This document shows positions 53,746 to 64,000 of a DNA stretch of 64,000 nt, one piece after another. Positions within the stretch are counted from its first letter, which is position 1; every line of letters begins with the position of its first letter. This DNA comes from Synergistales bacterium (GTDB taxonomy: Bacteria > Synergistota > Synergistia > Synergistales > JAFGMB01), in the NCBI GenBank assembly GCA_963666205.1, contig OY762654.1:1536001-1600000 (forward strand), given 5' to 3'. Below the pieces are notes generated by a model. That model worked only from the letters and a program-made list of their open reading frames with translations, was not told the DNA's origin and did no database searches. The position numbers and the translations under genes are program-made.

Positions 53746-53781
53746 AGGAAGGGACTTTCCCGATCGGGAAAGTCCCTTCCT
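53746..53781. terminator. Perfect 36-bp palindrome between convergent genes
   Basis: AGGAAGGGACTTTCCCGA|TCGGGAAAGTCCCTTCCT. Confidence 0.8.
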
Positions 53782-53888: not shown

Positions 53889-54605
53889 TCAGGAGATTGT
53901 TTTTCCCAGGTAGGCTTCCTGGACAACGCTGCTCCGCAAAAGCTCTTCGGCACTTCCCTGGAGGACTACATTTCCTCTTTCAAGGACATATCCCCTATGA
54001 GAAACAGATAATGCTATCTCTGCGTTCTGTTCCACGAGAAGGATGGAAATTCCCTGACTGTTTATCCTGACTATGTTATCAAATACTTCATCCACGATCA
54101 CCGGAGCAAGACCCATGGATGGTTCATCAAGGAGCAACAGGTCGGGACGGCTCATAAGCCCCCTGGCCATGACAAGCATCTGCTGCTCTCCCCCGGACAA
54201 TGTTCCGGCTATCTGTTTTATCCTTTCTTTCAAACGGGGGAACAGGGAAAAAGCCTTCTCCATATCCTCTTCAATTTCAGACCCGTTTTTTCTTGTATAT
54301 GCTCCCATTACAAGATTTTCCCTGACAGTAAGATCCGAAAATACATGTCTTCCTTCAGGGACATGGCCAATACCTGATTCAACTATTTTATGCGCCGGGA
54401 CGGAGGAGATCTCTTTGTTTTTGAAGATAACACTTCCGGAATGAATGGGAATAATATTCGAGATGGCAGACAATGTACTGGTTTTTCCGGCACCATTTGC
54501 TCCCAGAAGGGCAACTATCTCTCCGGCCTCAATGTTAAAAGAGATCCCCTGGACTGCATGGATCACGCCATAATACACATTAAGATCTTTAACTGTGAAT
54601 AACAT
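53889..54605 (-). CDS. livF: Branched-chain amino acid ABC transporter ATPase
   Basis: GANGAGKT, LSGGEQQM and DEPSMGLAP motifs. Confidence 0.95.
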   Translation of the reverse strand: MLFTVKDLNVYYGVIHAVQGISFNIEAGEIVALLGANGAGKTSTLSAISNIIPIHSGSVIFKNKEISSVPAHKIVESGIGHVPEGRHVFSDLTVRENLVMGAYTRKNGSEIEEDMEKAFSLFPRLKERIKQIAGTLSGGEQQMLVMARGLMSRPDLLLLDEPSMGLAPVIVDEVFDNIVRINSQGISILLVEQNAEIALSVSHRGYVLERGNVVLQGSAEELLRSSVVQEAYLGKTIS

Positions 54606-55374
54606 GACTTGATCTCCGTTTTCCTAAATATGCCTCAATCACATGGGGATCCTTCTGAACGTGATCAGGAGAACCCCTTGAAATTATCTTTCCGAAATTC
54701 ATTACTGCAATTCTTTCGCTCAAATTCATTACCAGACCCATCTGGTGTTCGATCAATAATATACCGAGAGAAAAATGCTCCCTGGAAAAGCGGATCAATT
54801 CAACAAGAGAATGAATTTCCCCGAGGGTCATCCCTGCAGCAGGTTCATCCAGAAGGAGTATTTTGGGCGTGATGGCGAGAGCACGCGCAATTTCGAGCCT
54901 TCGCTGCTGTCCATAGGGAAGGTTCCCCGCCAGTTCATCTGCCCGCCCTTCCAGACCGAACAGTTCAAGCATATGAAAGACCTTTTCACGAATAAGCTTT
55001 TCACCTTTTTTGAAGCTGCTATTTCGAATAACAGCTTCGAAAGAGCTGTATCCTGCCAACCGGTGGAAAGCTATCTCAAGATTTCGAAATACTGTCAGAT
55101 CCTTAAAGAGCCTGATATTCTGGAAGGTCCTTGCTATGCCCTTTTCTGCTATCCGGCTTGTTTTCTGCCCGATAAGGTTTTCGCCATCGAGCACAACACT
55201 TCCTTTAGAGGGGGGGTAGATCCCCGTAATGATATTAAAAACAGTTGTTTTTCCAGCTCCATTGGGACCGATCAATGCAACGATCTCTCCTGAATCAACG
55301 TCCAGGGAGAAATCGCTTACTGCAGTCAGACCTCCAAACTGTATGCTTATATCGCTGATCTTCAATAAACTCAA
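54589..55374 (-). CDS. livG: Branched-chain amino acid ABC transporter ATPase
   Basis: GPNGAGKT, LPYGQQRRLE and DEPAAG motifs. Confidence 0.95.
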   Translation of the reverse strand: MSLLKISDISIQFGGLTAVSDFSLDVDSGEIVALIGPNGAGKTTVFNIITGIYPPSKGSVVLDGENLIGQKTSRIAEKGIARTFQNIRLFKDLTVFRNLEIAFHRLAGYSSFEAVIRNSSFKKGEKLIREKVFHMLELFGLEGRADELAGNLPYGQQRRLEIARALAITPKILLLDEPAAGMTLGEIHSLVELIRFSREHFSLGILLIEHQMGLVMNLSERIAVMNFGKIISRGSPDHVQKDPHVIEAYLGKRRSSHVIHS

Positions 55375-55375
55375 T

Positions 55376-56353
55376 TTACTCCCCTCCCGTTCTGGTGCAC
55401 CACAGGAAAAAGCGTCTTTGTAAATACTTCAAGGGGTCCCTGCTTATGAAGATGATCAATAAAAGAGGATACAGGATCAGTCGAAGATCCTGGGAAAACC
55501 TTAATAATTCAGGAAGGACGGTAAGACCTATTCCTGCAATTACAGATCCGACGATACTTCCCATACCTCCTACGACGACCATAAGAAGGATCTCTATTGA
55601 CTTTATAAAGGTATATTGGGTTGGATGGGCCAGCTGGATCAGGTGTACAAGCATCCCTCCAGCCAGTGCAGCAAAAAAACAGCCGATAACAAGGGCATGG
55701 AGCTTGACTTTCAAGCTGTCAATACCCAGCGATTCTGCTGCAATTTCATCTCCAAGGATGGCTTCACAGTTCCGCCCCCTTGAAGAATGTATATATCTGC
55801 TTATGAAAACAACACTTATCCATGCGAGGAAGATCAGACTCCAGAGGTTACTGAGTTTTGGTATTCCATAAAAACCCCTTGGACCTCCCAGAAAATCCAG
55901 ATTATTCAAAGCCACTACTACTATCTGATTGAAACCCAGGGTCGCAATACAAAGGTAATCACCCGTGAGACGCAGGATTATCAAACCCAAAAAAAAGGCA
56001 ATCACTGCAGCGGCAAGGGCTCCGATCATAAGACTCAGAAGAAACAGAACAGTGCCTGAAAAAAAACCGGCTCCAGGTTTAAGGTGGAATACAGCTTTGG
56101 TCAAAAAGGCAGAAATATAGGCACCTACTGCCATAAAACCTGCATGCCCAAGAGAAAACTGCCCGGTTATGCCCGTTATCAGGTTCAGACTGAGGGTAAG
56201 GATCACATTACATAAACCCACCATTAAAACGAACATGATATATGGCGAAACCACCTGGAATCTGTCCAGGAAGATAAGGATGAGGGTCAGGATAAATGCA
56301 GTCACTGGCCATTTATATTTTACAAGAGATTGATAATTGAGGACTGATCCCAT
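55376..56353 (-). CDS. livM: Branched-chain amino acid ABC transporter permease
   Basis: GQFSLGHAGF and GDYLCIATLG motifs. Confidence 0.93.
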   Translation of the reverse strand: MGSVLNYQSLVKYKWPVTAFILTLILIFLDRFQVVSPYIMFVLMVGLCNVILTLSLNLITGITGQFSLGHAGFMAVGAYISAFLTKAVFHLKPGAGFFSGTVLFLLSLMIGALAAAVIAFFLGLIILRLTGDYLCIATLGFNQIVVVALNNLDFLGGPRGFYGIPKLSNLWSLIFLAWISVVFISRYIHSSRGRNCEAILGDEIAAESLGIDSLKVKLHALVIGCFFAALAGGMLVHLIQLAHPTQYTFIKSIEILLMVVVGGMGSIVGSVIAGIGLTVLPELLRFSQDLRLILYPLLLIIFISRDPLKYLQRRFFLWCTRTGGE

Positions 56354-56355
56354 CT

Positions 56356-57252
56356 CTACACCTTCTCCCTGGTACTTTTACCGAAGAGTCCAAAAGGTCT
56401 TATCAGCAATACAACGAGCAGCAGAAGGAAAAAAACCCCTTCGGCCATCTGTGAATTAACAGCCGTAGCAGCGGTTTCTATGATTCCCATAAGCATTCCC
56501 CCCACCATGGCTCCGGGAATACTTCCAATTCCTCCAAAAACAGCAGCAATAAATGCCTTTAATCCGGGCATTATCCCCATATAGGGACTTAAGCGAGGAT
56601 AAGTTATTGCGGTGAGTACCCCCGCGGCACCTGCCAGGGCTCCTCCGAGGGCAAATGTGGCCGAGATGACCCTCTCTACATTTACACCCATAAGCTTTGC
56701 CCCTTTAGGATCAAGAGAGACCGCCCGCATGGCAATACCAAGTTTTGTTTTCTTGATAATGAACCAAAGCATAAGCATCAGGCTTATTGCCATTACCAGG
56801 TTTATTATCTGAATGTTTGTAATAATAATGTTTTCGGTTAATGAAAAATTTTTGACATTTATTACATCTGGAAAACGTCTGAAACTCGGCCCAATGAATG
56901 GAAGGGCCCTGCAGCCATTCTCCAGGAGTAAAGAAACACCCATTGCGGTGATCAATGCCTTTAACCTGGGCTGGGACCTAAGGGGTTTATATGCAACTTT
57001 ATCCATGATAATAGCTCCCAGTGCACCAACCGCCATGGATGCCACAAAAGCAACGGGCAAAGGAACATGCAGGTTAACCAGAAAATATGCTACATATGCG
57101 GCGATCATCAGAAGATCACCATGAGCAAAATTTATAAGTTTCAGAATTCCATAGACCATTGTGTATCCCAATGCCATGAGGGCATAAATGGCGCCAAGCT
57201 GTATACCATTGATAAGCTGAATAATAACTAATTCCATATGACAAAGCACCAT
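56356..57252 (-). CDS. livH: Branched-chain amino acid ABC transporter permease
   Basis: ALGYTMVYGILKLINFAHG motif. Confidence 0.94.
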   Translation of the reverse strand: MVLCHMELVIIQLINGIQLGAIYALMALGYTMVYGILKLINFAHGDLLMIAAYVAYFLVNLHVPLPVAFVASMAVGALGAIIMDKVAYKPLRSQPRLKALITAMGVSLLLENGCRALPFIGPSFRRFPDVINVKNFSLTENIIITNIQIINLVMAISLMLMLWFIIKKTKLGIAMRAVSLDPKGAKLMGVNVERVISATFALGGALAGAAGVLTAITYPRLSPYMGIMPGLKAFIAAVFGGIGSIPGAMVGGMLMGIIETAATAVNSQMAEGVFFLLLLVVLLIRPFGLFGKSTREKV

Positions 57253-57365
57253 CCTTAAAACCAGGGATCCTGTTCAGGATTCATAGATCACATCAACAGG
57301 ATCCCTGAACTATTTAATAACTCTTTTCTGACACCAGGAACGATGCAGGAAGAGATGTCAGAATG

Positions 57366-58508
57366 TTACTGGATGGGCTGATAACTCTTCATATAATCGA
57401 TCCGCCCGTCTTTGATAACGAGAATAGCAGCCGGGAGGGTCATGGGATCTCCGTTTTCATCAAGGGTAATATCACCCTGGGCAGCCTTCAATCCATTCGT
57501 TTTTGCGATGGCATCTGCAACTGCTCCTCTATCTTCTTTACCTGCGGAACGGATACCGTCAATAACCATTAGTGCGGCATCATACCCCATGATGGCTAAC
57601 AGATCGGGTTCTGAATTATATTTCTTTTTATACTCTTCGATAAAGAACCTTGTTTCAGTACGGGGATCCTCTTTTGAAAAATGACTGCAGTAATATGCTC
57701 CTTCCAATGAAACCAGATCAAGCTCTGGCGAATCCCAACCGTCAGAACCTACAAAAACAGCCTCAATACCGATATCTTTTGCCTGTCTGGCAATAAGGTT
57801 GGCATCATTGTAGAAATCCGAGAAAAAGAAAACATCAGGTTTTTTAGATTTGATAATACTTAACTGGGCCCTGAAGTCTACTGCCTGGGATGGATGGGTC
57901 TGAACCGTAACTACCTTTCCTCCCTCAGCTTCAAAAGTCCTTATAAAGACTTCGGCAACACTCTTGGCATAATCATTTCCAAGGTCATAAAGAACTGCGG
58001 CTGTTTTAGCAGATAATTCGTTTACACAGAATCTTCCCATTACCACTCCCTGAAAATCATCGGTCCAACAGCTTCTTGATACAAAATGCTTTTCAGGAGT
58101 GATGGCCGGATTCGTTCCTGTTACAACTGTGGGCACCCCGGCATCCTCCACTATGGAAGATACTGCCATACCGATAGTACTGGGAATTGGGCCGACAATT
58201 GCCAGCACATTGTCCTGCCCGATCAGTTTAAGGGCGGCACCTGCCCCGATAACAGGATCTCCCTGATCATCCTCATTCAGAAGCCTGATCTGCTTCCCCA
58301 GAACTCCACCATTCATATTTGCCTGTTCAACAGCCAGTTCAACACCATTTCTATGACTTTCTCCATAAGTCGATAAAGGCCCGGTAAGACACGCAATATT
58401 ACCTATTTTGATAGCATCACTGGAAGCCCACGTGGCACCTGCAGCAAAAATGATCATAAGGCTCACCGCAAAGAACATAAAAACTCTCTTACCCTTCATT
58501 CTGTTCAC
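57366..58508 (-). CDS. livK: Branched-chain amino acid ABC transporter substrate-binding protein
   Basis: Signal peptide; LTGPLSTYG, NGGVLGK and GYDA motifs. Confidence 0.9.
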   Translation of the reverse strand: MNRMKGKRVFMFFAVSLMIIFAAGATWASSDAIKIGNIACLTGPLSTYGESHRNGVELAVEQANMNGGVLGKQIRLLNEDDQGDPVIGAGAALKLIGQDNVLAIVGPIPSTIGMAVSSIVEDAGVPTVVTGTNPAITPEKHFVSRSCWTDDFQGVVMGRFCVNELSAKTAAVLYDLGNDYAKSVAEVFIRTFEAEGGKVVTVQTHPSQAVDFRAQLSIIKSKKPDVFFFSDFYNDANLIARQAKDIGIEAVFVGSDGWDSPELDLVSLEGAYYCSHFSKEDPRTETRFFIEEYKKKYNSEPDLLAIMGYDAALMVIDGIRSAGKEDRGAVADAIAKTNGLKAAQGDITLDENGDPMTLPAAILVIKDGRIDYMKSYQPIQ

Positions 58509-58628: not shown

Positions 58629-59504
58629 TTAATATACCGGAGTTCCTTCCTTGTGGATCAGTATCTTGAAACATTCGATCAGGGAAGTGGTTATCGGTCC
58701 TGCAGTTGAATCGCCAATTTCTCTTCCATCAACCATTCTTACATGACATATCTCTGCTCCTGTTCCACAGACAAAGGCTTCGTCACATGTATACACATCC
58801 CCCAGGGTGATATCCTTTTCGCACGTGGGTATCTCCATTTCCCGAGCCATTTCAATTACTGTCTGACGGGTTATTCCATGGAGGATATTTGTTCTAAGGG
58901 GAGAATAGAGCACTCCATTTTTAACGATAAGAAAATTTTCTCCCGGTCCCTCTGCAACAAAACCCTGTACATCAAGAAGCAGAGCTTCATCGCAATCAGA
59001 AGCTGTGGCTTCCTGTTTTGCCATAATACCGTTAACATATGTGCCCACACATTTGGCACGGGAATCAAAACAGGCCGGGGGAAATTTCCTCACAGCAGAA
59101 GTTTTCATGGTTATCCCCGAATCTCCAAGGAAGGGCTTCCATGGATGAGCGAGGACTATAACAGTGGGATCATAGTCGGGATCAGGTCCGACTCCCAGAC
59201 CCATGCCACGGGTAATGATAGGCCTTATGTGGGCATCTCTGAGGCTGTTTTCACGAAGGGTATCTAAAACAATTTCTTTCAATTCATCTTTTGTCGATGG
59301 GATCTTTATCCCCAGGATCCTGGCTGAATCAAAAAGTCTGTCTATATGTTCATCCAGCTTGAAAACTTTTCCATCGTATTCTCTGATCCCCTCAAAAACG
59401 GCATCTCCATAGAGAAGACCTCTGTCAAAAGGTGAGATACCCGGCTCGTCAGCAGGAACAAATTTTCCGTTGATATAAACCTTTAACCCTGATAAATCGA
59501 TCAT
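58629..59504 (-). CDS. ilvE: Branched-chain amino acid aminotransferase (class IV)
   Basis: LYGDAVFEG, EGPGEN, LHGITR and GTGAE motifs; AGGGAGGA RBS. Confidence 0.93.
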   Translation of the reverse strand: MIDLSGLKVYINGKFVPADEPGISPFDRGLLYGDAVFEGIREYDGKVFKLDEHIDRLFDSARILGIKIPSTKDELKEIVLDTLRENSLRDAHIRPIITRGMGLGVGPDPDYDPTVIVLAHPWKPFLGDSGITMKTSAVRKFPPACFDSRAKCVGTYVNGIMAKQEATASDCDEALLLDVQGFVAEGPGENFLIVKNGVLYSPLRTNILHGITRQTVIEMAREMEIPTCEKDITLGDVYTCDEAFVCGTGAEICHVRMVDGREIGDSTAGPITTSLIECFKILIHKEGTPVY

Positions 59505-59589
59505 TCTTGCATTCCTCCCTGTCTTTAGAACTGTGGATCCATTAAAAACTATCATCCTGATAATGTTCTATGCACATTGCATTACAGGT

Positions 59590-60426
59590 TTAATCCAATT
59601 TTGAGATTTCTTCAATATCTTCCCTGCTGATACCGGAAAATACATGTTCCTCTGAAGGAAACTGTTTCTGCTTAACTTCCTCATTAAAACTCTGAAGCGC
59701 CTTGATGATCTCTTCTCCTATCTGCTTATACTGCTTTACAAACCTGGGTACAAACTTGTCAAAAAGGCCAAGCATGTCATGGAAAACAAGAACCTGTCCA
59801 TCACAATATCTACCCGCACCTATTCCTATCACGGGTATCGATAAAGCTTCAGAAACAGCCCTTCCCAATTCCTCAGGAACACACTCCAGTACAATGGAAA
59901 AAGCTCCCGCTTCCTCAAGATATTTCGCTTCATCAATAAGCTTCTTCGCCGATTCCAGACTTTTTCCCTGGACTTTGAATCCTCCAAGGAGAGAAGCTGT
60001 CTGAGGAGTAAGACCGATATGACCCTGTACAGGGATTCCTGCTTCCACTATTGCTCTCACTACTTCCGGCCTTCCTCCTTCCAGTTTAACGGCATCGCAT
60101 CCTCCTTCTTTCATCATACGGTTGGCGCTGGAAATAGCCTGTGATATGCTTTCGTTATAGGATCCGAAGACCATATCTCCAATGATCATGGCAGATGGCG
60201 CTCCTTTTACCACTGGACGAATATGGTGGATCATTTCGTCAGTAGTAAGAGAAACTGTCCCCTCATTTCCCAACATAGTCATTGACAGAGAATCACCCAC
60301 CAGGATAATCTCTATCCCGGCTTTCTCGACAAGAACAGCCTGAGAATAATCATAAGCCGTAACCATGGATATCTTTTCTTTGCCTTCCTTCATTTTCTGC
60401 ATCTTTTGAATGGTAAACTTTGCCAT
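59590..60426 (-). CDS. panB: 3-methyl-2-oxobutanoate hydroxymethyltransferase
   Basis: TAYD, LVGDS, VKLEGG, GHIGLTPQ and DGQVLV motifs. Confidence 0.97.
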   Translation of the reverse strand: MAKFTIQKMQKMKEGKEKISMVTAYDYSQAVLVEKAGIEIILVGDSLSMTMLGNEGTVSLTTDEMIHHIRPVVKGAPSAMIIGDMVFGSYNESISQAISSANRMMKEGGCDAVKLEGGRPEVVRAIVEAGIPVQGHIGLTPQTASLLGGFKVQGKSLESAKKLIDEAKYLEEAGAFSIVLECVPEELGRAVSEALSIPVIGIGAGRYCDGQVLVFHDMLGLFDKFVPRFVKQYKQIGEEIIKALQSFNEEVKQKQFPSEEHVFSGISREDIEEISKLD

Positions 60427-60455
60427 TCTTTTCAAACCCCTTTCAGCTTTTAGAT

Positions 60456-60492
60456 AAAAAAAAGGCCGGGACCCCTTTTAGGGTCCCGGCCT
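60456..60492 (-). terminator. Attenuator terminator upstream of panB
   Basis: AGGCCGGGACCC-TAAAAG-GGGTCCCGGCCT plus a T run on the minus strand, about 20 nt before the panB RBS. Confidence 0.92.
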
Positions 60493-60510
60493 GAAGGTTG
60501 CGGCTAAAGG

Positions 60511-60612
60511 TTAAACGCCAACATCCACTCCAGGAAGGACCCTGCAGCTTAGGACATCGACTACTACAACAACGGCAAAAGATATTCTCTTCGTAACACG
60601 TGAACGGTCCAC
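60511..60612 (-). CDS. Val-rich leader peptide (33 aa)
   Basis: AAGGGGAG RBS, GTG start; MDRSRVTKRISFAVVVVVDVLSCRVLPGVDVGV*; 11 Val, 5 consecutive; stop just before the terminator. Confidence 0.85.
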   Translation of the reverse strand: MDRSRVTKRISFAVVVVVDVLSCRVLPGVDVGV

Positions 60613-60659
60613 TGGACTCACTCCCCTTGAAGGAATGCATAGAATGTGAATTGGTGGCA

Positions 60660-60688
60660 ATTCTATAGAAGATTGCCCAAAAGGTCAA
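60660..60688 (-). promoter_or_regulatory. Sigma70 promoter of the leader-panB operon
   Basis: TTGACC, 17 bp, TAGAAT. Confidence 0.75.
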
Positions 60689-60887
60689 CCCTTTTTTCAG
60701 AATTTTCATGAAAGATCTTGAAAAAATCTGCATAATCTCTTTAACATCAACCTTTACATTTACATCCTGACACTCCCATGACCCTTTACAGGAAATTCTG
60801 CATATTCTGTAATTCCCGGGGGATCAAAAGTCAAAAGAGGGCAAATGCACATCCATCTTACCTCTTTCATATTCATGGAAAACAATT

Positions 60888-62294
60888 CTAGAGCATTGCT
60901 TCTACGGCCATCCCGCTCTCCTCAAGCACTGACTGGGCGGCGACCAGTCCGCTGGAGGCAGCCTGCACAATTCCCCGGCTCACTCCGGCTCCATCGCCCA
61001 CCATGTACAGGTTTTTCACCCCGGGGACTTCGAGGGTACTTTTTAACTCAAGCCTGAGCGAATAAAGCTTTATCTCAACACCATAAAGGAGGGTATCGCT
61101 GTGGTTTACTCCAGGCATGATAATATTCAGGGCATCGAGGAACTCGACAATATCTACAAGATGTCTGTGGGGCAGCACAAGGCTCAGGTCACCAGGCTGT
61201 GCATTGGCTGTTGGCGCGACCATTCCCCGCCTGATACGGGCCTCTGTGGATCGTCTTCCATCCCTGAGGTCGCCAAGCCTCTGAAGTAGTATGCCTCCAC
61301 CGGCCAGCATGTTGGCCAGTTTGCCTATATGGGTAGCATAACCTATGGGATTACTGAAGGGCTGTGTAAAATTCTTGGTCACCAGGATAGCAAAGTTGGT
61401 ATTCCTGGACTTTGTCTCTTTGAGACTATGTCCATTGACTGTCACGAGGTTGTGGGACCGGCTGTATTCTGTTACAACGAATCCGGATGGGTTCATGCAG
61501 AAGGTTCGGCAGCGGTCATCAAAGGTCGGAGTATTGTAGAGACACTTCACTTCATAGAAGTGTTCCGTAAGGTCCTCACATACGCTATCCGGGACCTCCA
61601 CCCGGACTCCTATGTCCACAGGCATGGAAGCGATGGGCAGCTGAAGTCTGTTCACTATGTTCTCCAACCAGGAAGCCCCGTCTCTGCCAGGAGCTACTAT
61701 TACACTGTCAGCATGGTAAATTCCATCATCCTTTAAAATTACACCTCTGGCTTTTCCTTTTTCGACTATTATGTCCTTGACAAAGGTGTTGAGCATGATG
61801 TCACATTTTTCTTTAAGGTCAAGATACATGTTATTAAGAACTTCTCTGGAAGCATCGGTACCTATGTGACGGATCCTTGCAGGAAGTACCTTTATCCCGA
61901 CACTGGCCGCTTTGCGTATGGTTTCCTTGACAATGGGGCCGCCGGGTTCATAACAGTGGTTGTCTGCACCAAAACTGACAAAGGTTCTATCAACCATATC
62001 AATATACTGATCCAGTCTCCCATCACCTATGTATTCCTCGAGGTTGCCTCCGAATCCGGTGGTGAGGGTAAGTTTGCCGTCCGAGGCAGAACCTGCTCCT
62101 CCCCAGCCTGATACTACACTGCAGACGGCACAATTGACGCAGGTTTTGGCCTTTCCCTCAAGGACAGGGCAATGCCTTTCCTTGATCACCTTTCCCTTGT
62201 CGATTATGAGCACTTTTTTGTTGTGCTTCACAAGTTCTGTAGCCGCAAATATTCCCGCAGGTCCTGAGCCGACAATTATGGCATCGTATTTCAT
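60888..62294 (-). CDS. NAD(P)/FAD-dependent oxidoreductase
   Basis: IIVGSGPAG, GWGGAGSASDGK, RTFCMNP and GDGAGVSRG motifs; start at ATG 62294. Confidence 0.9.
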   Translation of the reverse strand: MKYDAIIVGSGPAGIFAATELVKHNKKVLIIDKGKVIKERHCPVLEGKAKTCVNCAVCSVVSGWGGAGSASDGKLTLTTGFGGNLEEYIGDGRLDQYIDMVDRTFVSFGADNHCYEPGGPIVKETIRKAASVGIKVLPARIRHIGTDASREVLNNMYLDLKEKCDIMLNTFVKDIIVEKGKARGVILKDDGIYHADSVIVAPGRDGASWLENIVNRLQLPIASMPVDIGVRVEVPDSVCEDLTEHFYEVKCLYNTPTFDDRCRTFCMNPSGFVVTEYSRSHNLVTVNGHSLKETKSRNTNFAILVTKNFTQPFSNPIGYATHIGKLANMLAGGGILLQRLGDLRDGRRSTEARIRRGMVAPTANAQPGDLSLVLPHRHLVDIVEFLDALNIIMPGVNHSDTLLYGVEIKLYSLRLELKSTLEVPGVKNLYMVGDGAGVSRGIVQAASSGLVAAQSVLEESGMAVEAML

Positions 62295-62469
62295 AACTTC
62301 ATTCTCCTTTAGAAGAATTGGGTTTCCTTTATTCAGTATAACCTTAGACCCTTCAAAATGCATATTCCCCCAAATGGGGATTTTCTCACCAGGAACAGTC
62401 GAAATCAAACGATCTTTTTAGGACTATTTTCAGCTATTTCATCTTATTCATAGAACACCCTGCGGTAAA

Positions 62470-63297: not shown

Positions 63298-64000
63298 CTA
63301 TTCGTACCCCCGGTTGGTGTTGAGGGTCTTTAGCATGGCGTACATGGCTCTGGTATAGGGAAATTCATCTTCATTCCGGGCATATTTCAGAACCCCTCCG
63401 GGTATGGTTTCCACTTCCATCCGTCTTCCGGCCAGGTTGTCCTGAAGCATGGAGGGAATATTGGTGGCCGTCTTGCGGATGTTATCCAGAAAGGTGTCCC
63501 AGAGTTCTTCCATTTCCAGGTTTATTCCTTCCCTACATGCAGCCTCCACGGTCTCCCTGCCTATTTCCTTCATTAATTCCAGGATAAGGGGGCTTGAGAT
63601 AAGACCTTCATTATTAAGCCCTGTCATGGCTGCACAGGTGTTGACCATGTTGTTTATGGTGAGCTTCTTCCATATGAAAGGCCTTGGGTCTTCCACGTAT
63701 TTCACATTAAAGGCACTCCTTTTGAGGATTTCCATCACCCAGACCATATCATATTCTGCACTCCATGGCCCCAGGACGATCAGGGCGCCTCCTGCCTCCT
63801 GGACAACTCCGGGAGCACGCTTTATGGCTCCCCAGTGGGCAACTCCTGCAGCTACCTTTTCCTCCCCGAATATGGAGGAGAGGGTCTCGGCGTTTCCCAG
63901 TCCATTCTGAAGGGTAAGTACCACTCCTCCCTTTTTCAGAATGTCCCTTAGAGGGTCCAGTTCTTCAGTGCTGAAGGACTTTACCAGCACGATGATCAGT
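63298..64000 (-). CDS. panE: Ketopantoate reductase (PanE/ApbA family), 5' end outside the window
   Basis: VKS, LQNGLG, WKKL..N and PSMLQD..GR..E motifs. Confidence 0.85.
   Translation of the reverse strand, partial: LIIVLVKSFSTEELDPLRDILKKGGVVLTLQNGLGNAETLSSIFGEEKVAAGVAHWGAIKRAPGVVQEAGGALIVLGPWSAEYDMVWVMEILKRSAFNVKYVEDPRPFIWKKLTINNMVNTCAAMTGLNNEGLISSPLILELMKEIGRETVEAACREGINLEMEELWDTFLDNIRKTATNIPSMLQDNLAGRRMEVETIPGGVLKYARNEDEFPYTRAMYAMLKTLNTNRGYE

Follow-up and report, generated by a model that had tools for sequence, protein, structure and literature searches.

The enterobacterial operons ilvGMEDA and ilvBN are preceded by short leaders (ilvL and ivbL, respectively) that carry runs of branched-chain amino acid codons and form mutually exclusive 1:2, 2:3 and 3:4 helices, the position of the ribosome deciding which of them prevails. 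T-boxes bind uncharged tRNA directly, with no need of translation, and switch a terminator located before amino-acid genes. The substrate of PanB is ketoisovalerate, the keto acid of valine. Two further elements have been described: in Corynebacterium, a conserved upstream open reading frame (uORF) of ilvBNC, the ilvB-II motif, regulates this branched-chain amino acid operon (PMC10272879, in its accessible part), and the pan motif, found before panB, panC and panD operons, has a simple stem in which two A residues are bulged, usually occurs in tandem, and is one for which protein binding was proposed (PMC2864571, likewise in its accessible part). Here, we analyzed a window of 64,000 nucleotides (nt) from a Synergistales bacterium (contig OY762654.1, positions 1,536,001 to 1,600,000; the term window refers to this whole stretch), in which the minus-strand leader of panB, the first gene of a panB-ilvE-livKHMGF row, is very probably a leader-peptide attenuator of transcription, ribosome-mediated and responding to how much charged tRNA-Val is available. 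The mechanism is a textbook one; the family to which this leader belongs and its panB target are new. Positions are window coordinates unless prefixed by a contig label (C1 or C8), G000 being the window's own genome (2.95 Mb) and G001 a second genome of the same genus.

A first-pass annotation had described on the minus strand a promoter, a Shine-Dalgarno sequence, a 33-amino-acid (aa) uORF with 11 Val codons, a run of five Val codons and a terminator, and every one of these elements lies where it had placed them (Table 1). The uORF encodes VDRSRVTKRISFAVVVVVDVLSCRVLPGVDVGV, in which the 11 Val codons are counted besides the GTG start, and the terminator sits between the uORF and the panB start codon. 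The Val run is far beyond chance, as VVVVV appears only twice in the six-frame translation of the whole genome (5.9 million codons) and in just one instance among 68,389 stop-to-stop frames of 20-60 aa. The promoter was called from its position and its conservation in G001, where both hexamers are identical, since such sites are no commoner in the scan than in shuffled sequences (11 found versus 13.1 +/- 4.4, i.e., no excess). The different frame reported at this place by the ORF track, also pointed out in the first-pass annotation, corresponds to a 96-aa ORF (60443-60733) that was rejected, having no Pfam match and being broken by 1-nt indels in G001.

The support that we consider decisive comes from the paralogues of this leader, which combine a single expression platform with codon runs matching the pathway genes that follow. 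A DNA search with the 261-nt leader gave a full-length match only in G001 (85% identity), and its 3' portion of about 95 nt matched elsewhere in G000 and in other families of the order; these paralogous leaders have a uORF in the shared frame, with a common C-terminal half and differing runs. Eleven members were recovered in G000 by nhmmer with a 4-copy seed, 7 of them outside the seed, and a covariance model (R1) found 12 copies with uORFs together with two matches (C1:1467024 and C1:2169076) that were set aside as plain gene-end terminators lacking a uORF. The panB leader, itself a seed sequence of R1, scores 96.2 bits against it (E 2.4e-25), with the uORF in frame and the stop position conserved.

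The sensor run tracks the genes downstream: Ile with ilv, Leu with leuA or leuC, Phe with DAHP synthase, Tyr/Phe/Trp with a symporter, Met/Thr with homoserine dehydrogenase, and Val with panB-ilvE-liv. This was established on about 90 of more than 360 matches (the 30 loci with the highest scores, a further 40 picked for breadth across taxa, and earlier loci), a sample biased to the branched-chain type used to build the model. All 8 leaders located directly before leuA (HMGL-like/LeuA_dimer) have LLL or LLLL right before G-C-[W/R]-F, and two leaders before leuC have LLGLL or LLLGLL, so that 10 of 10 leuA/leuC leaders bear Leu runs and no Ile/Val run. Mixed Ile/Val/Leu runs were found in 23 leaders before ilvN, ACT or ilvC genes, Ile/Val/Leu runs also in three leaders before SNF-family transporters, and leaders with FYFYFWF and YYFYYWF precede a sodium:solute symporter. 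Furthermore, a leader with MFGMGTMTT (3 Met and 3 Thr codons; L119, G001:C8:505706-505816) lies directly before homoserine dehydrogenase, and therefore the platform is not limited to hydrophobic amino acids. In one scanned set, 8 of 37 downstream proteins had no Pfam family.

Within G000, the two tandem Ile-run attenuators of the ilv operon are nearly identical and lie about 240 nt apart, each with its own uORF and terminator. No long ORF was found within several hundred nt downstream of the LVLIVVIII and YYFYYWF leaders of this genome; in a relative, a YYFYYWF-type leader precedes a sodium:solute symporter located about 580 nt away.

Regarding its distribution, R1 (E <= 1e-4) matched 107 of 151 sampled Synergistota genomes, with 1-17 matches per genome; matches were present in 100 of 142 high-quality genomes and in 50 of 54 sampled genera, including families outside the window's order. 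Once hits not spanning the model and peptides outside 20-45 aa had been dropped, 87 distinct leaders were compiled, all of which (87/87) keep the frame open and match the Shine-Dalgarno sequence over 4 nt or more. Their peptides measure 27-40 aa (median 31), and the conserved GCCGG of the terminator arm, located in 70 of the 87 leaders, follows the stop codon at a distance of 18-29 nt (median 25). Members share one reading frame (...S-C-G-S-P/L-P-G...), the place of the stop codon, the antiterminator and the terminator. When 185,579 species genomes (one per species) were scanned for an exact pattern, 22 loci were returned, of which 6 match R1, namely those with Synergistota titles (Acetomicrobium, Thermovirga, Synergistales and Synergistaceae); the other 16 have no R1 match and were taken as chance matches. 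As far as sampled, the family is restricted to Synergistota, the exact pattern being a narrow one that does not by itself rule out members in other phyla. A basic N-terminus, a hydrophobic run and I-S-C-G-S give many leader peptides the look of lipoprotein signal peptides (e.g., 60549-60511); this likeness seems a by-product of RNA constraints, because the Cys codon varies as NGC.

Covariation of the helices, which the first-pass annotation had suggested looking for, is seen family-wide in the antiterminator 2:3, which carries compensatory changes. A covariance model containing the antiterminator structure was used to realign 47 matches (45 distinct sequences); in this alignment, which was fitted to the tested structure and consists of related sequences, both of which inflate the counts, 90.9% of the antiterminator cells are paired versus 87.5 +/- 0.6 in shuffles, changes on both sides are seen at 6 of 12 pairs, and double-change cells number 32 versus 7.4 +/- 2.4, a value reached by 0 of 500 shuffles. 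Sliding the partner strand by one column lowers pairing to 59-67%. When 41 truncated leaders were aligned with plain MAFFT, RNAalifold yielded only 4 invariant pairs, a low return because 1-nt register shifts misalign the strands. Duplex energies of segments 2 and 3 were also compared with mononucleotide shuffles; the comparison was noisy, with several segments wrongly bounded and G+C-rich shuffles pairing well, and no conclusion was drawn from it.

The predicted folds agree with these observations. For the full leader, the predicted structure is hairpin A plus the terminator (-72.8 kcal/mol; z = -3.4 versus shuffles), and in a transcript ending before segment 4 the minimum-energy fold is helix 2:3, as had been proposed, with AGGGUCCU and CCUGGAG (60543-60528) pairing with CUUCAGG and GGGACCCU (60496-60480) at -30.5 kcal/mol. 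Helix 2:3 stays the best nascent fold when a ribosome footprint is masked over any codon of the Val run. The helix 1:2 put forward at first, joining 60616-60606 with 60541-60529, fared less well: the complementarity exists, but the helix is absent from unconstrained minimum-energy folds, was seen as drawn in one ribosome-masked fold only, overlaps the start codon, and is half lost in G001. More likely, the anti-antiterminator is the local hairpin A (60561-60517), whose inner stem (GCUGCGGG with CCYGGAGC) recurs across the family and whose outer stem is member-specific, being weak on the whole but strong in the leaders of the panB, leuC, Ile and Phe types; the outer stem of the panB copy is among the strongest of 51 leaders compared. 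Hairpin A has a mean z-score of -0.68 over 45 leaders. The three mutually exclusive folds are similar in energy (hairpin A -23.0, helix 2:3 -30.5 and terminator -29.4 kcal/mol), and imposing hairpin A on the nascent transcript carries a penalty of just 3.2 kcal/mol; therefore, the choice of fold would be kinetic.

The start site, the stalling of the ribosome, its coupling to the polymerase, the steric hindrance it exerts at the stop codon, the valine response and the reach of the operon are inferred from the sequence, and would fit together as follows. Transcription would start about 7 nt past the -10 hexamer, and a ribosome would load onto the 33-codon uORF. With plentiful Val-tRNA, the ribosome would reach the TAA codon and cover the stretch between segments 2 and 3, so that segment 3 would pair with segment 4 and the 13-bp/T8 terminator would halt RNA polymerase about 30 nt 5' of panB; with no engaged ribosome, hairpin A would sequester segment 2, leading to the same termination. 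With scarce Val-tRNA, the ribosome would stall on the Val run, its footprint would melt the 5' strand of hairpin A, and the freed segment 2 would pair with segment 3 upon its emergence, thereby blocking the terminator and allowing read-through into panB, ilvE and probably livKHMGF.

Metatranscriptome contigs (4 runs of one study, low depth) cover 60505-60769 and parts of panB; they give no ends, strand or level, and hence neither support nor refute termination. The variants they contain, a GTG to TTG change at the start and a GTA to GTC change in the run, come from single contigs at depth <5.

Several points weigh against a Val attenuator at panB. R1 matches just 2 of 30 panB loci (the window's own and 29 others), namely the window's and that of G001, and for this copy there is no covariation to draw on, because its sole close relative is identical across the structured part; for the family as a whole, the covariation counts are inflated in the manner stated above. 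The unconstrained nascent transcript already favours helix 2:3, and therefore termination in a ribosome-free transcript depends on folding kinetics. The family-wide signal for the member-specific outer stem of hairpin A is weak, with a mean duplex energy of -4.89 for own partners versus -4.41 for swapped ones, and 23 of 1000 permutations did as well. The RNA contigs extend about 80 nt 5' of the predicted -35 hexamer, which could reflect read-through from the upstream gene, a different start site, or DNA present in the library. Finally, the adaptive value of inducing PanB, which consumes ketoisovalerate, at a time of valine shortage is not obvious; low valine would mean low ketoisovalerate, and raising Liv, IlvE and PanB together would protect pantoate synthesis.

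Conservation within the genus bears directly on the panB copy. G001 keeps the uORF start, and a 33-aa uORF at the equivalent position is the sole minus-strand ORF conserved inside the leader; the Val run is conserved apart from one synonymous substitution (GTA to GTC), and the 5' untranslated region and uORF codons 2-13 are variable. From the end of the Val run through the 5' arm of the terminator, 84 nt are identical in both genomes, and a C to T change in the 3' arm of the G001 terminator maintains a G-U pair. In G001, panB is again followed by a class IV aminotransferase gene. Together, the anatomy, the paralogues and the conservation of the uORF and Val run in G001 support the ribosome-mediated Val attenuator that the first-pass annotation had proposed.

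The conservation across Synergistota panB genes that was envisaged there stands for the family, which is phylum-wide, but not for the panB leader, which is not phylum-wide since it was found only in this genus among the sampled genomes. In other genera, orthologous panB genes (65-80% identical) occur without the leader; panE is next in 17 of 18 downstream ORFs scanned, and an IclR-type regulator precedes panB in 9 of 20 upstream ORFs scanned (loci L062-L085). G000 itself has a second panB (48% identical; C1:1113198-1116983, L022), in the order IclR, panB, class I/II aminotransferase, as well as panC and several ApbA/PanE-family genes. Among the loci sampled, a panB-ilvE-liv row behind an attenuator exists only in this genus. 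The best non-orthologous DNA matches of the panB leader are ilv leaders of another family, with a common ...VVVISCGVLPGVTVGV, and for this reason it probably derives from an ilv-type leader. The panB copy looks like a genus-level recruitment that joins ketopantoate synthesis to valine transamination and uptake. A broader proposal would see in the family a portable cassette, in which a fixed platform duplicates and is re-aimed through about 8 sensor codons (Val, Ile, Leu, Phe, Tyr/Phe/Trp or Met/Thr), and was placed here before a panB gene that elsewhere belongs to a panB-panE unit, often next to an IclR-type regulator, tying synthesis of the coenzyme A (CoA) precursor to valine import. In this proposal, the conserved Pro-Pro-Gly or Leu-Pro-Gly codons of segment 2 might go beyond a side effect of the RNA helix and cause an elongation factor P-dependent pause, holding the ribosome on segment 2 during terminator synthesis; taken as a whole, we consider this proposal unlikely.

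The conserved core (GCUGCGGGUCCCYUCCUGGAG ... GGCCGGGACCC) could instead be recognized by a trans-acting RNA-binding protein or a small ligand, the uORF being incidental. Conservation of this core in members serving different amino acids would be explained by a common binding site as well as by ancestry, and the genome does use other RNA switches, with 6 T-box matches, 3 of them above cut-off. Nevertheless, the core comprises no more than the two strands from which antiterminator and terminator are built, with no additional aptamer-like structure, a single ligand cannot account for runs that track each pathway, and the Shine-Dalgarno sequence, start codon, open frame and fixed stop position are retained in 87 of 87 leaders; given as well the lack of any Rfam riboswitch or protein-binding leader match, this explanation appears quite improbable. 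Alternatively, the element could be just a terminator, a gene for a small RNA or a dispersed repeat, its ORF having arisen by chance, or it could be the terminator of the upstream FAD-dependent gene. Its multi-copy nature, at 1-17 matches per genome, would suit a repeat, and a survey of another Synergistetes species, Thermovirga lienii, classed most conserved intergenic motifs of that species as mobile or repeat candidates (PMC6429828), which may or may not include the attenuator family; moreover, no terminator is predicted right after the upstream gene, which ends at 60888, and the RNA-library contigs reach 5' of the predicted promoter. Against this, every copy with an identified downstream gene precedes, in the same orientation, a gene for amino-acid biosynthesis or transport; the two plain-terminator R1 matches lack the open frame and Shine-Dalgarno sequence that all 87 leaders have; the promoter hexamers are conserved in G001; and VVVVV is far too rare for chance, all of which makes a mere terminator or repeat highly improbable.

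The uORF might also encode a functional small hydrophobic peptide, similar to a lipoprotein signal, that would itself be the purpose of the element or act in trans. The lipobox pattern, [ILV]-[ISA]-[SG]-C followed by G-S, is approached by many peptides of the family, which are signal-like. The Cys codon is not kept, however, appearing as TGC, CGC, AGC or GGC with only its last two bases invariant, the panB copy retains the RNA but alters the peptide (GS to RV) through an insertion plus a deletion, and the Leu, Phe, aromatic and Met/Thr versions track their downstream genes; we therefore give this last explanation hardly any credence, and attenuation through charged tRNA-Val remains the preferred reading.

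Table 1. Features of the panB leader, its downstream genes and the paralogous leaders of the same genome.
Feature	Position	Strand	Basis or context
Upstream block adjoining the -35 hexamer	60692..60733	-	G000 and G001 equal except for a 1-nt indel
Predicted sigma-70-like promoter: TTGACC (60688-60683), 17-nt spacer, TAGAAT (60665-60660)	60660..60688	-	Promoter scan, 10/12
Shine-Dalgarno sequence AAGGGGAG, 8 nt 5' of GTG 60612	60621..60628	-	Sequence; GGGAGGG at the same place in G001
Leader-peptide uORF: GTG start 60612, 33 codons, TAA 60513-60511	60511..60612	-	Translation
Sensor run GTT GTT GTA GTA GTC, five consecutive Val codons	60559..60573	-	Translation
Additional Val codon past the sensor run	60555-60553	-	Translation
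Hairpin A (1:2, probable anti-antiterminator): inner stem CAGGG/UCCUG, enclosed by the pairing of GUCGAUGUCC with GGAUGUUGGC	60517..60561	-	-23.0 kcal/mol
Segment 2, antiterminator 5' strand (AGGGUCCU..CCUGGAG)	60528..60543	-	Folds, family covariation
Segment 3, antiterminator 3' strand and terminator 5' arm (CUUCAGGCCGGGACCCU)	60480..60496	-	Folds, family covariation
Intrinsic terminator (segments 3:4): 13 bp (10 G-C), loop of 4, T8 tail	60455..60492	-	Scan; -29.4 kcal/mol
panB, 3-methyl-2-oxobutanoate hydroxymethyltransferase, ATG 60426	59590..60426	-	PF02548, E 3e-111; TIGR00222 and NF001452 above cut-off
ilvE, branched-chain amino acid aminotransferase (class IV)	58629..59555	-	TIGR01122 (ilvE_I equivalog), 302.8 bits, cut-off 245.55
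Liv-type ABC transporter gene set	53889..58508	-	Peripla_BP_6, BPD_transp_2 x2, ABC_tran x2, BCA_ABC_TP_C
Liv binding protein	57366-58508	-	Peripla_BP_6
Liv permeases	56356-57252, 55376-56353	-	BPD_transp_2
Liv ATPases	54589-55374, 53889-54605	-	ABC_tran
Strong terminator 3' of the last transporter gene, 16 pairs	53746..53781	-	Terminator scan; likely operon end
Tandem Ile-run leaders ...NVIIIAIIISCGSLPG... and ...NIIIIAIIINCGSLPG...	C1:2316526-2316878 (L023:326-682)		Before 83-aa ACT protein, ilvC, ilvB
...RLVLLILNCWFPSG..., weaker Leu-containing copy, no clear terminator	C1:2320045-2320160		Inside the same ilv operon, before ilvN
...NLLGLLDHCGSPP... leader (LLGLL)			Before leuC-leuD-leuB-leuA
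...FFSFFFSCGSPPG... leader (FFSFFF)			Before binding-protein-like gene, DAHP synthase, aroA
...VLFIVFIYIIDIL... leader			Before class I/II aminotransferase
...YVYFIYFIIF... leader			Before membrane protein of no known family, class III aminotransferase
...VSIIIVLII... leader			Before hydratase-like gene
...LVLIVVIII... and ...YYFYYWF... leaders	C1:992558-992669, C1:1479561-1479678 (L028, L029)		No downstream gene assigned

Downstream of the leader, the intergenic gaps from panB onward measure 34, 120 and 113 nt and are followed by overlaps. Between the leader terminator and the strong terminator behind the last transporter gene, only two weak minus-strand terminator-like sites were predicted (55492-55472 and 54782-54766), both within coding sequence, and a weak promoter-like site (58589-58561, 9/12 matches) lies 5' of livK. 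A single panB-ilvE-livKHMGF operon is plausible because of the gene order and the absence of predicted internal terminators apart from the two weak intragenic sites; control of the whole row by the attenuator would follow from this arrangement.

On the other side of the leader, the block adjoining the -35 hexamer holds a palindrome, AAGATCTT (60719-60712), with AT-rich arms (ATTTTTT...GAAAATT), and may be a candidate operator site, e.g., for a CodY-like regulator such as that proposed in the accessible part of PMC9318921. The FAD-dependent gene lies upstream at 60888-62408, and no terminator was predicted directly after its end. In another genus (L045 and L052; G052 and G093), a homologue of this gene is itself located behind a leader of the family (...LIVLIISSGSPPGVIGI). 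Further upstream, three tandem ApbA/PanE-family (ketopantoate reductase-like) genes occupy 63298-64000 and beyond (C1:1599760-1602094) on the minus strand; this trio lies 3-6 kb 5' of the panB leader, on the same strand, with methyladenine glycosylase and FAD-dependent genes intervening.

In a cmscan search of 59500-61500 against Rfam, with E values of 10 or less admitted, the only matches were chance ones due to the terminator, none of which reached half the gathering score; T-box, the pan motif named in the first-pass annotation, riboswitches, leader families and all other curated families are thereby excluded at the site. No Rfam match was obtained at 7 paralogue loci. G000 has 6 T-box (RF00230) matches, 3 of them above cut-off and none at the panB leader (C1:1596440-1596700); two tandem matches at C1:776848-777368 are both below the Rfam cut-off, and T-boxes and leader-peptide attenuators coexist in this genome.

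In line with the novelty anticipated at the outset, we found no paper describing this family in Synergistota or elsewhere, panB with valine leader-peptide attenuation, or a link between tRNA-Val charging and pantoate synthesis. In the accessible parts of the related sources, PMC9413887, on HisR, places His leaders in Firmicutes only, PMC8632094 merely lists the phylum Synergistetes, and PMC9318921, on the CodY-like regulon in Synergistetes, makes no mention of attenuation or T-box.

These findings extend classical leader-peptide attenuation to Synergistota, an understudied group of amino-acid fermenters, in the form of a multi-copy family missing from Rfam. With one platform and differing sensor codons, the family constitutes a natural series for studying how attenuators switch specificity and are recruited, and its panB copy would link tRNA-Val charging to the synthesis of pantoate and CoA precursors and to the uptake of branched-chain amino acids. 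The covariance model could also improve the annotation of regulatory uORFs and the assignment of putative transporter substrates; for instance, symporters behind FYFYFWF leaders are likely aromatic amino-acid carriers.

Compared with known systems, the panB leader would share with T-boxes the reading of tRNA charging, and differs in having no T-box match. Like the pan motif, it would be a cis-acting RNA before panB; unlike that motif, which according to the part of its description available to us is a bulged stem with no uORF, it has a uORF and no Rfam match to it. The Corynebacterium ilvBNC uORF, from another phylum, resembles it by description only, as given in the accessible part of its source, with no sequence comparison involved. 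With ilvL and ivbL, the panB leader shares a short uORF containing a codon run, predicted mutually exclusive helices, an intrinsic terminator and, in the proposed mechanism, a choice governed by the position of the ribosome. Unlike them, it has no Rfam leader match (E up to 10), its run consists of Val only, it would act on panB, an aminotransferase gene and Liv-type transporter genes, not on ilv biosynthesis genes, and its family spans at least six specificities on one platform.

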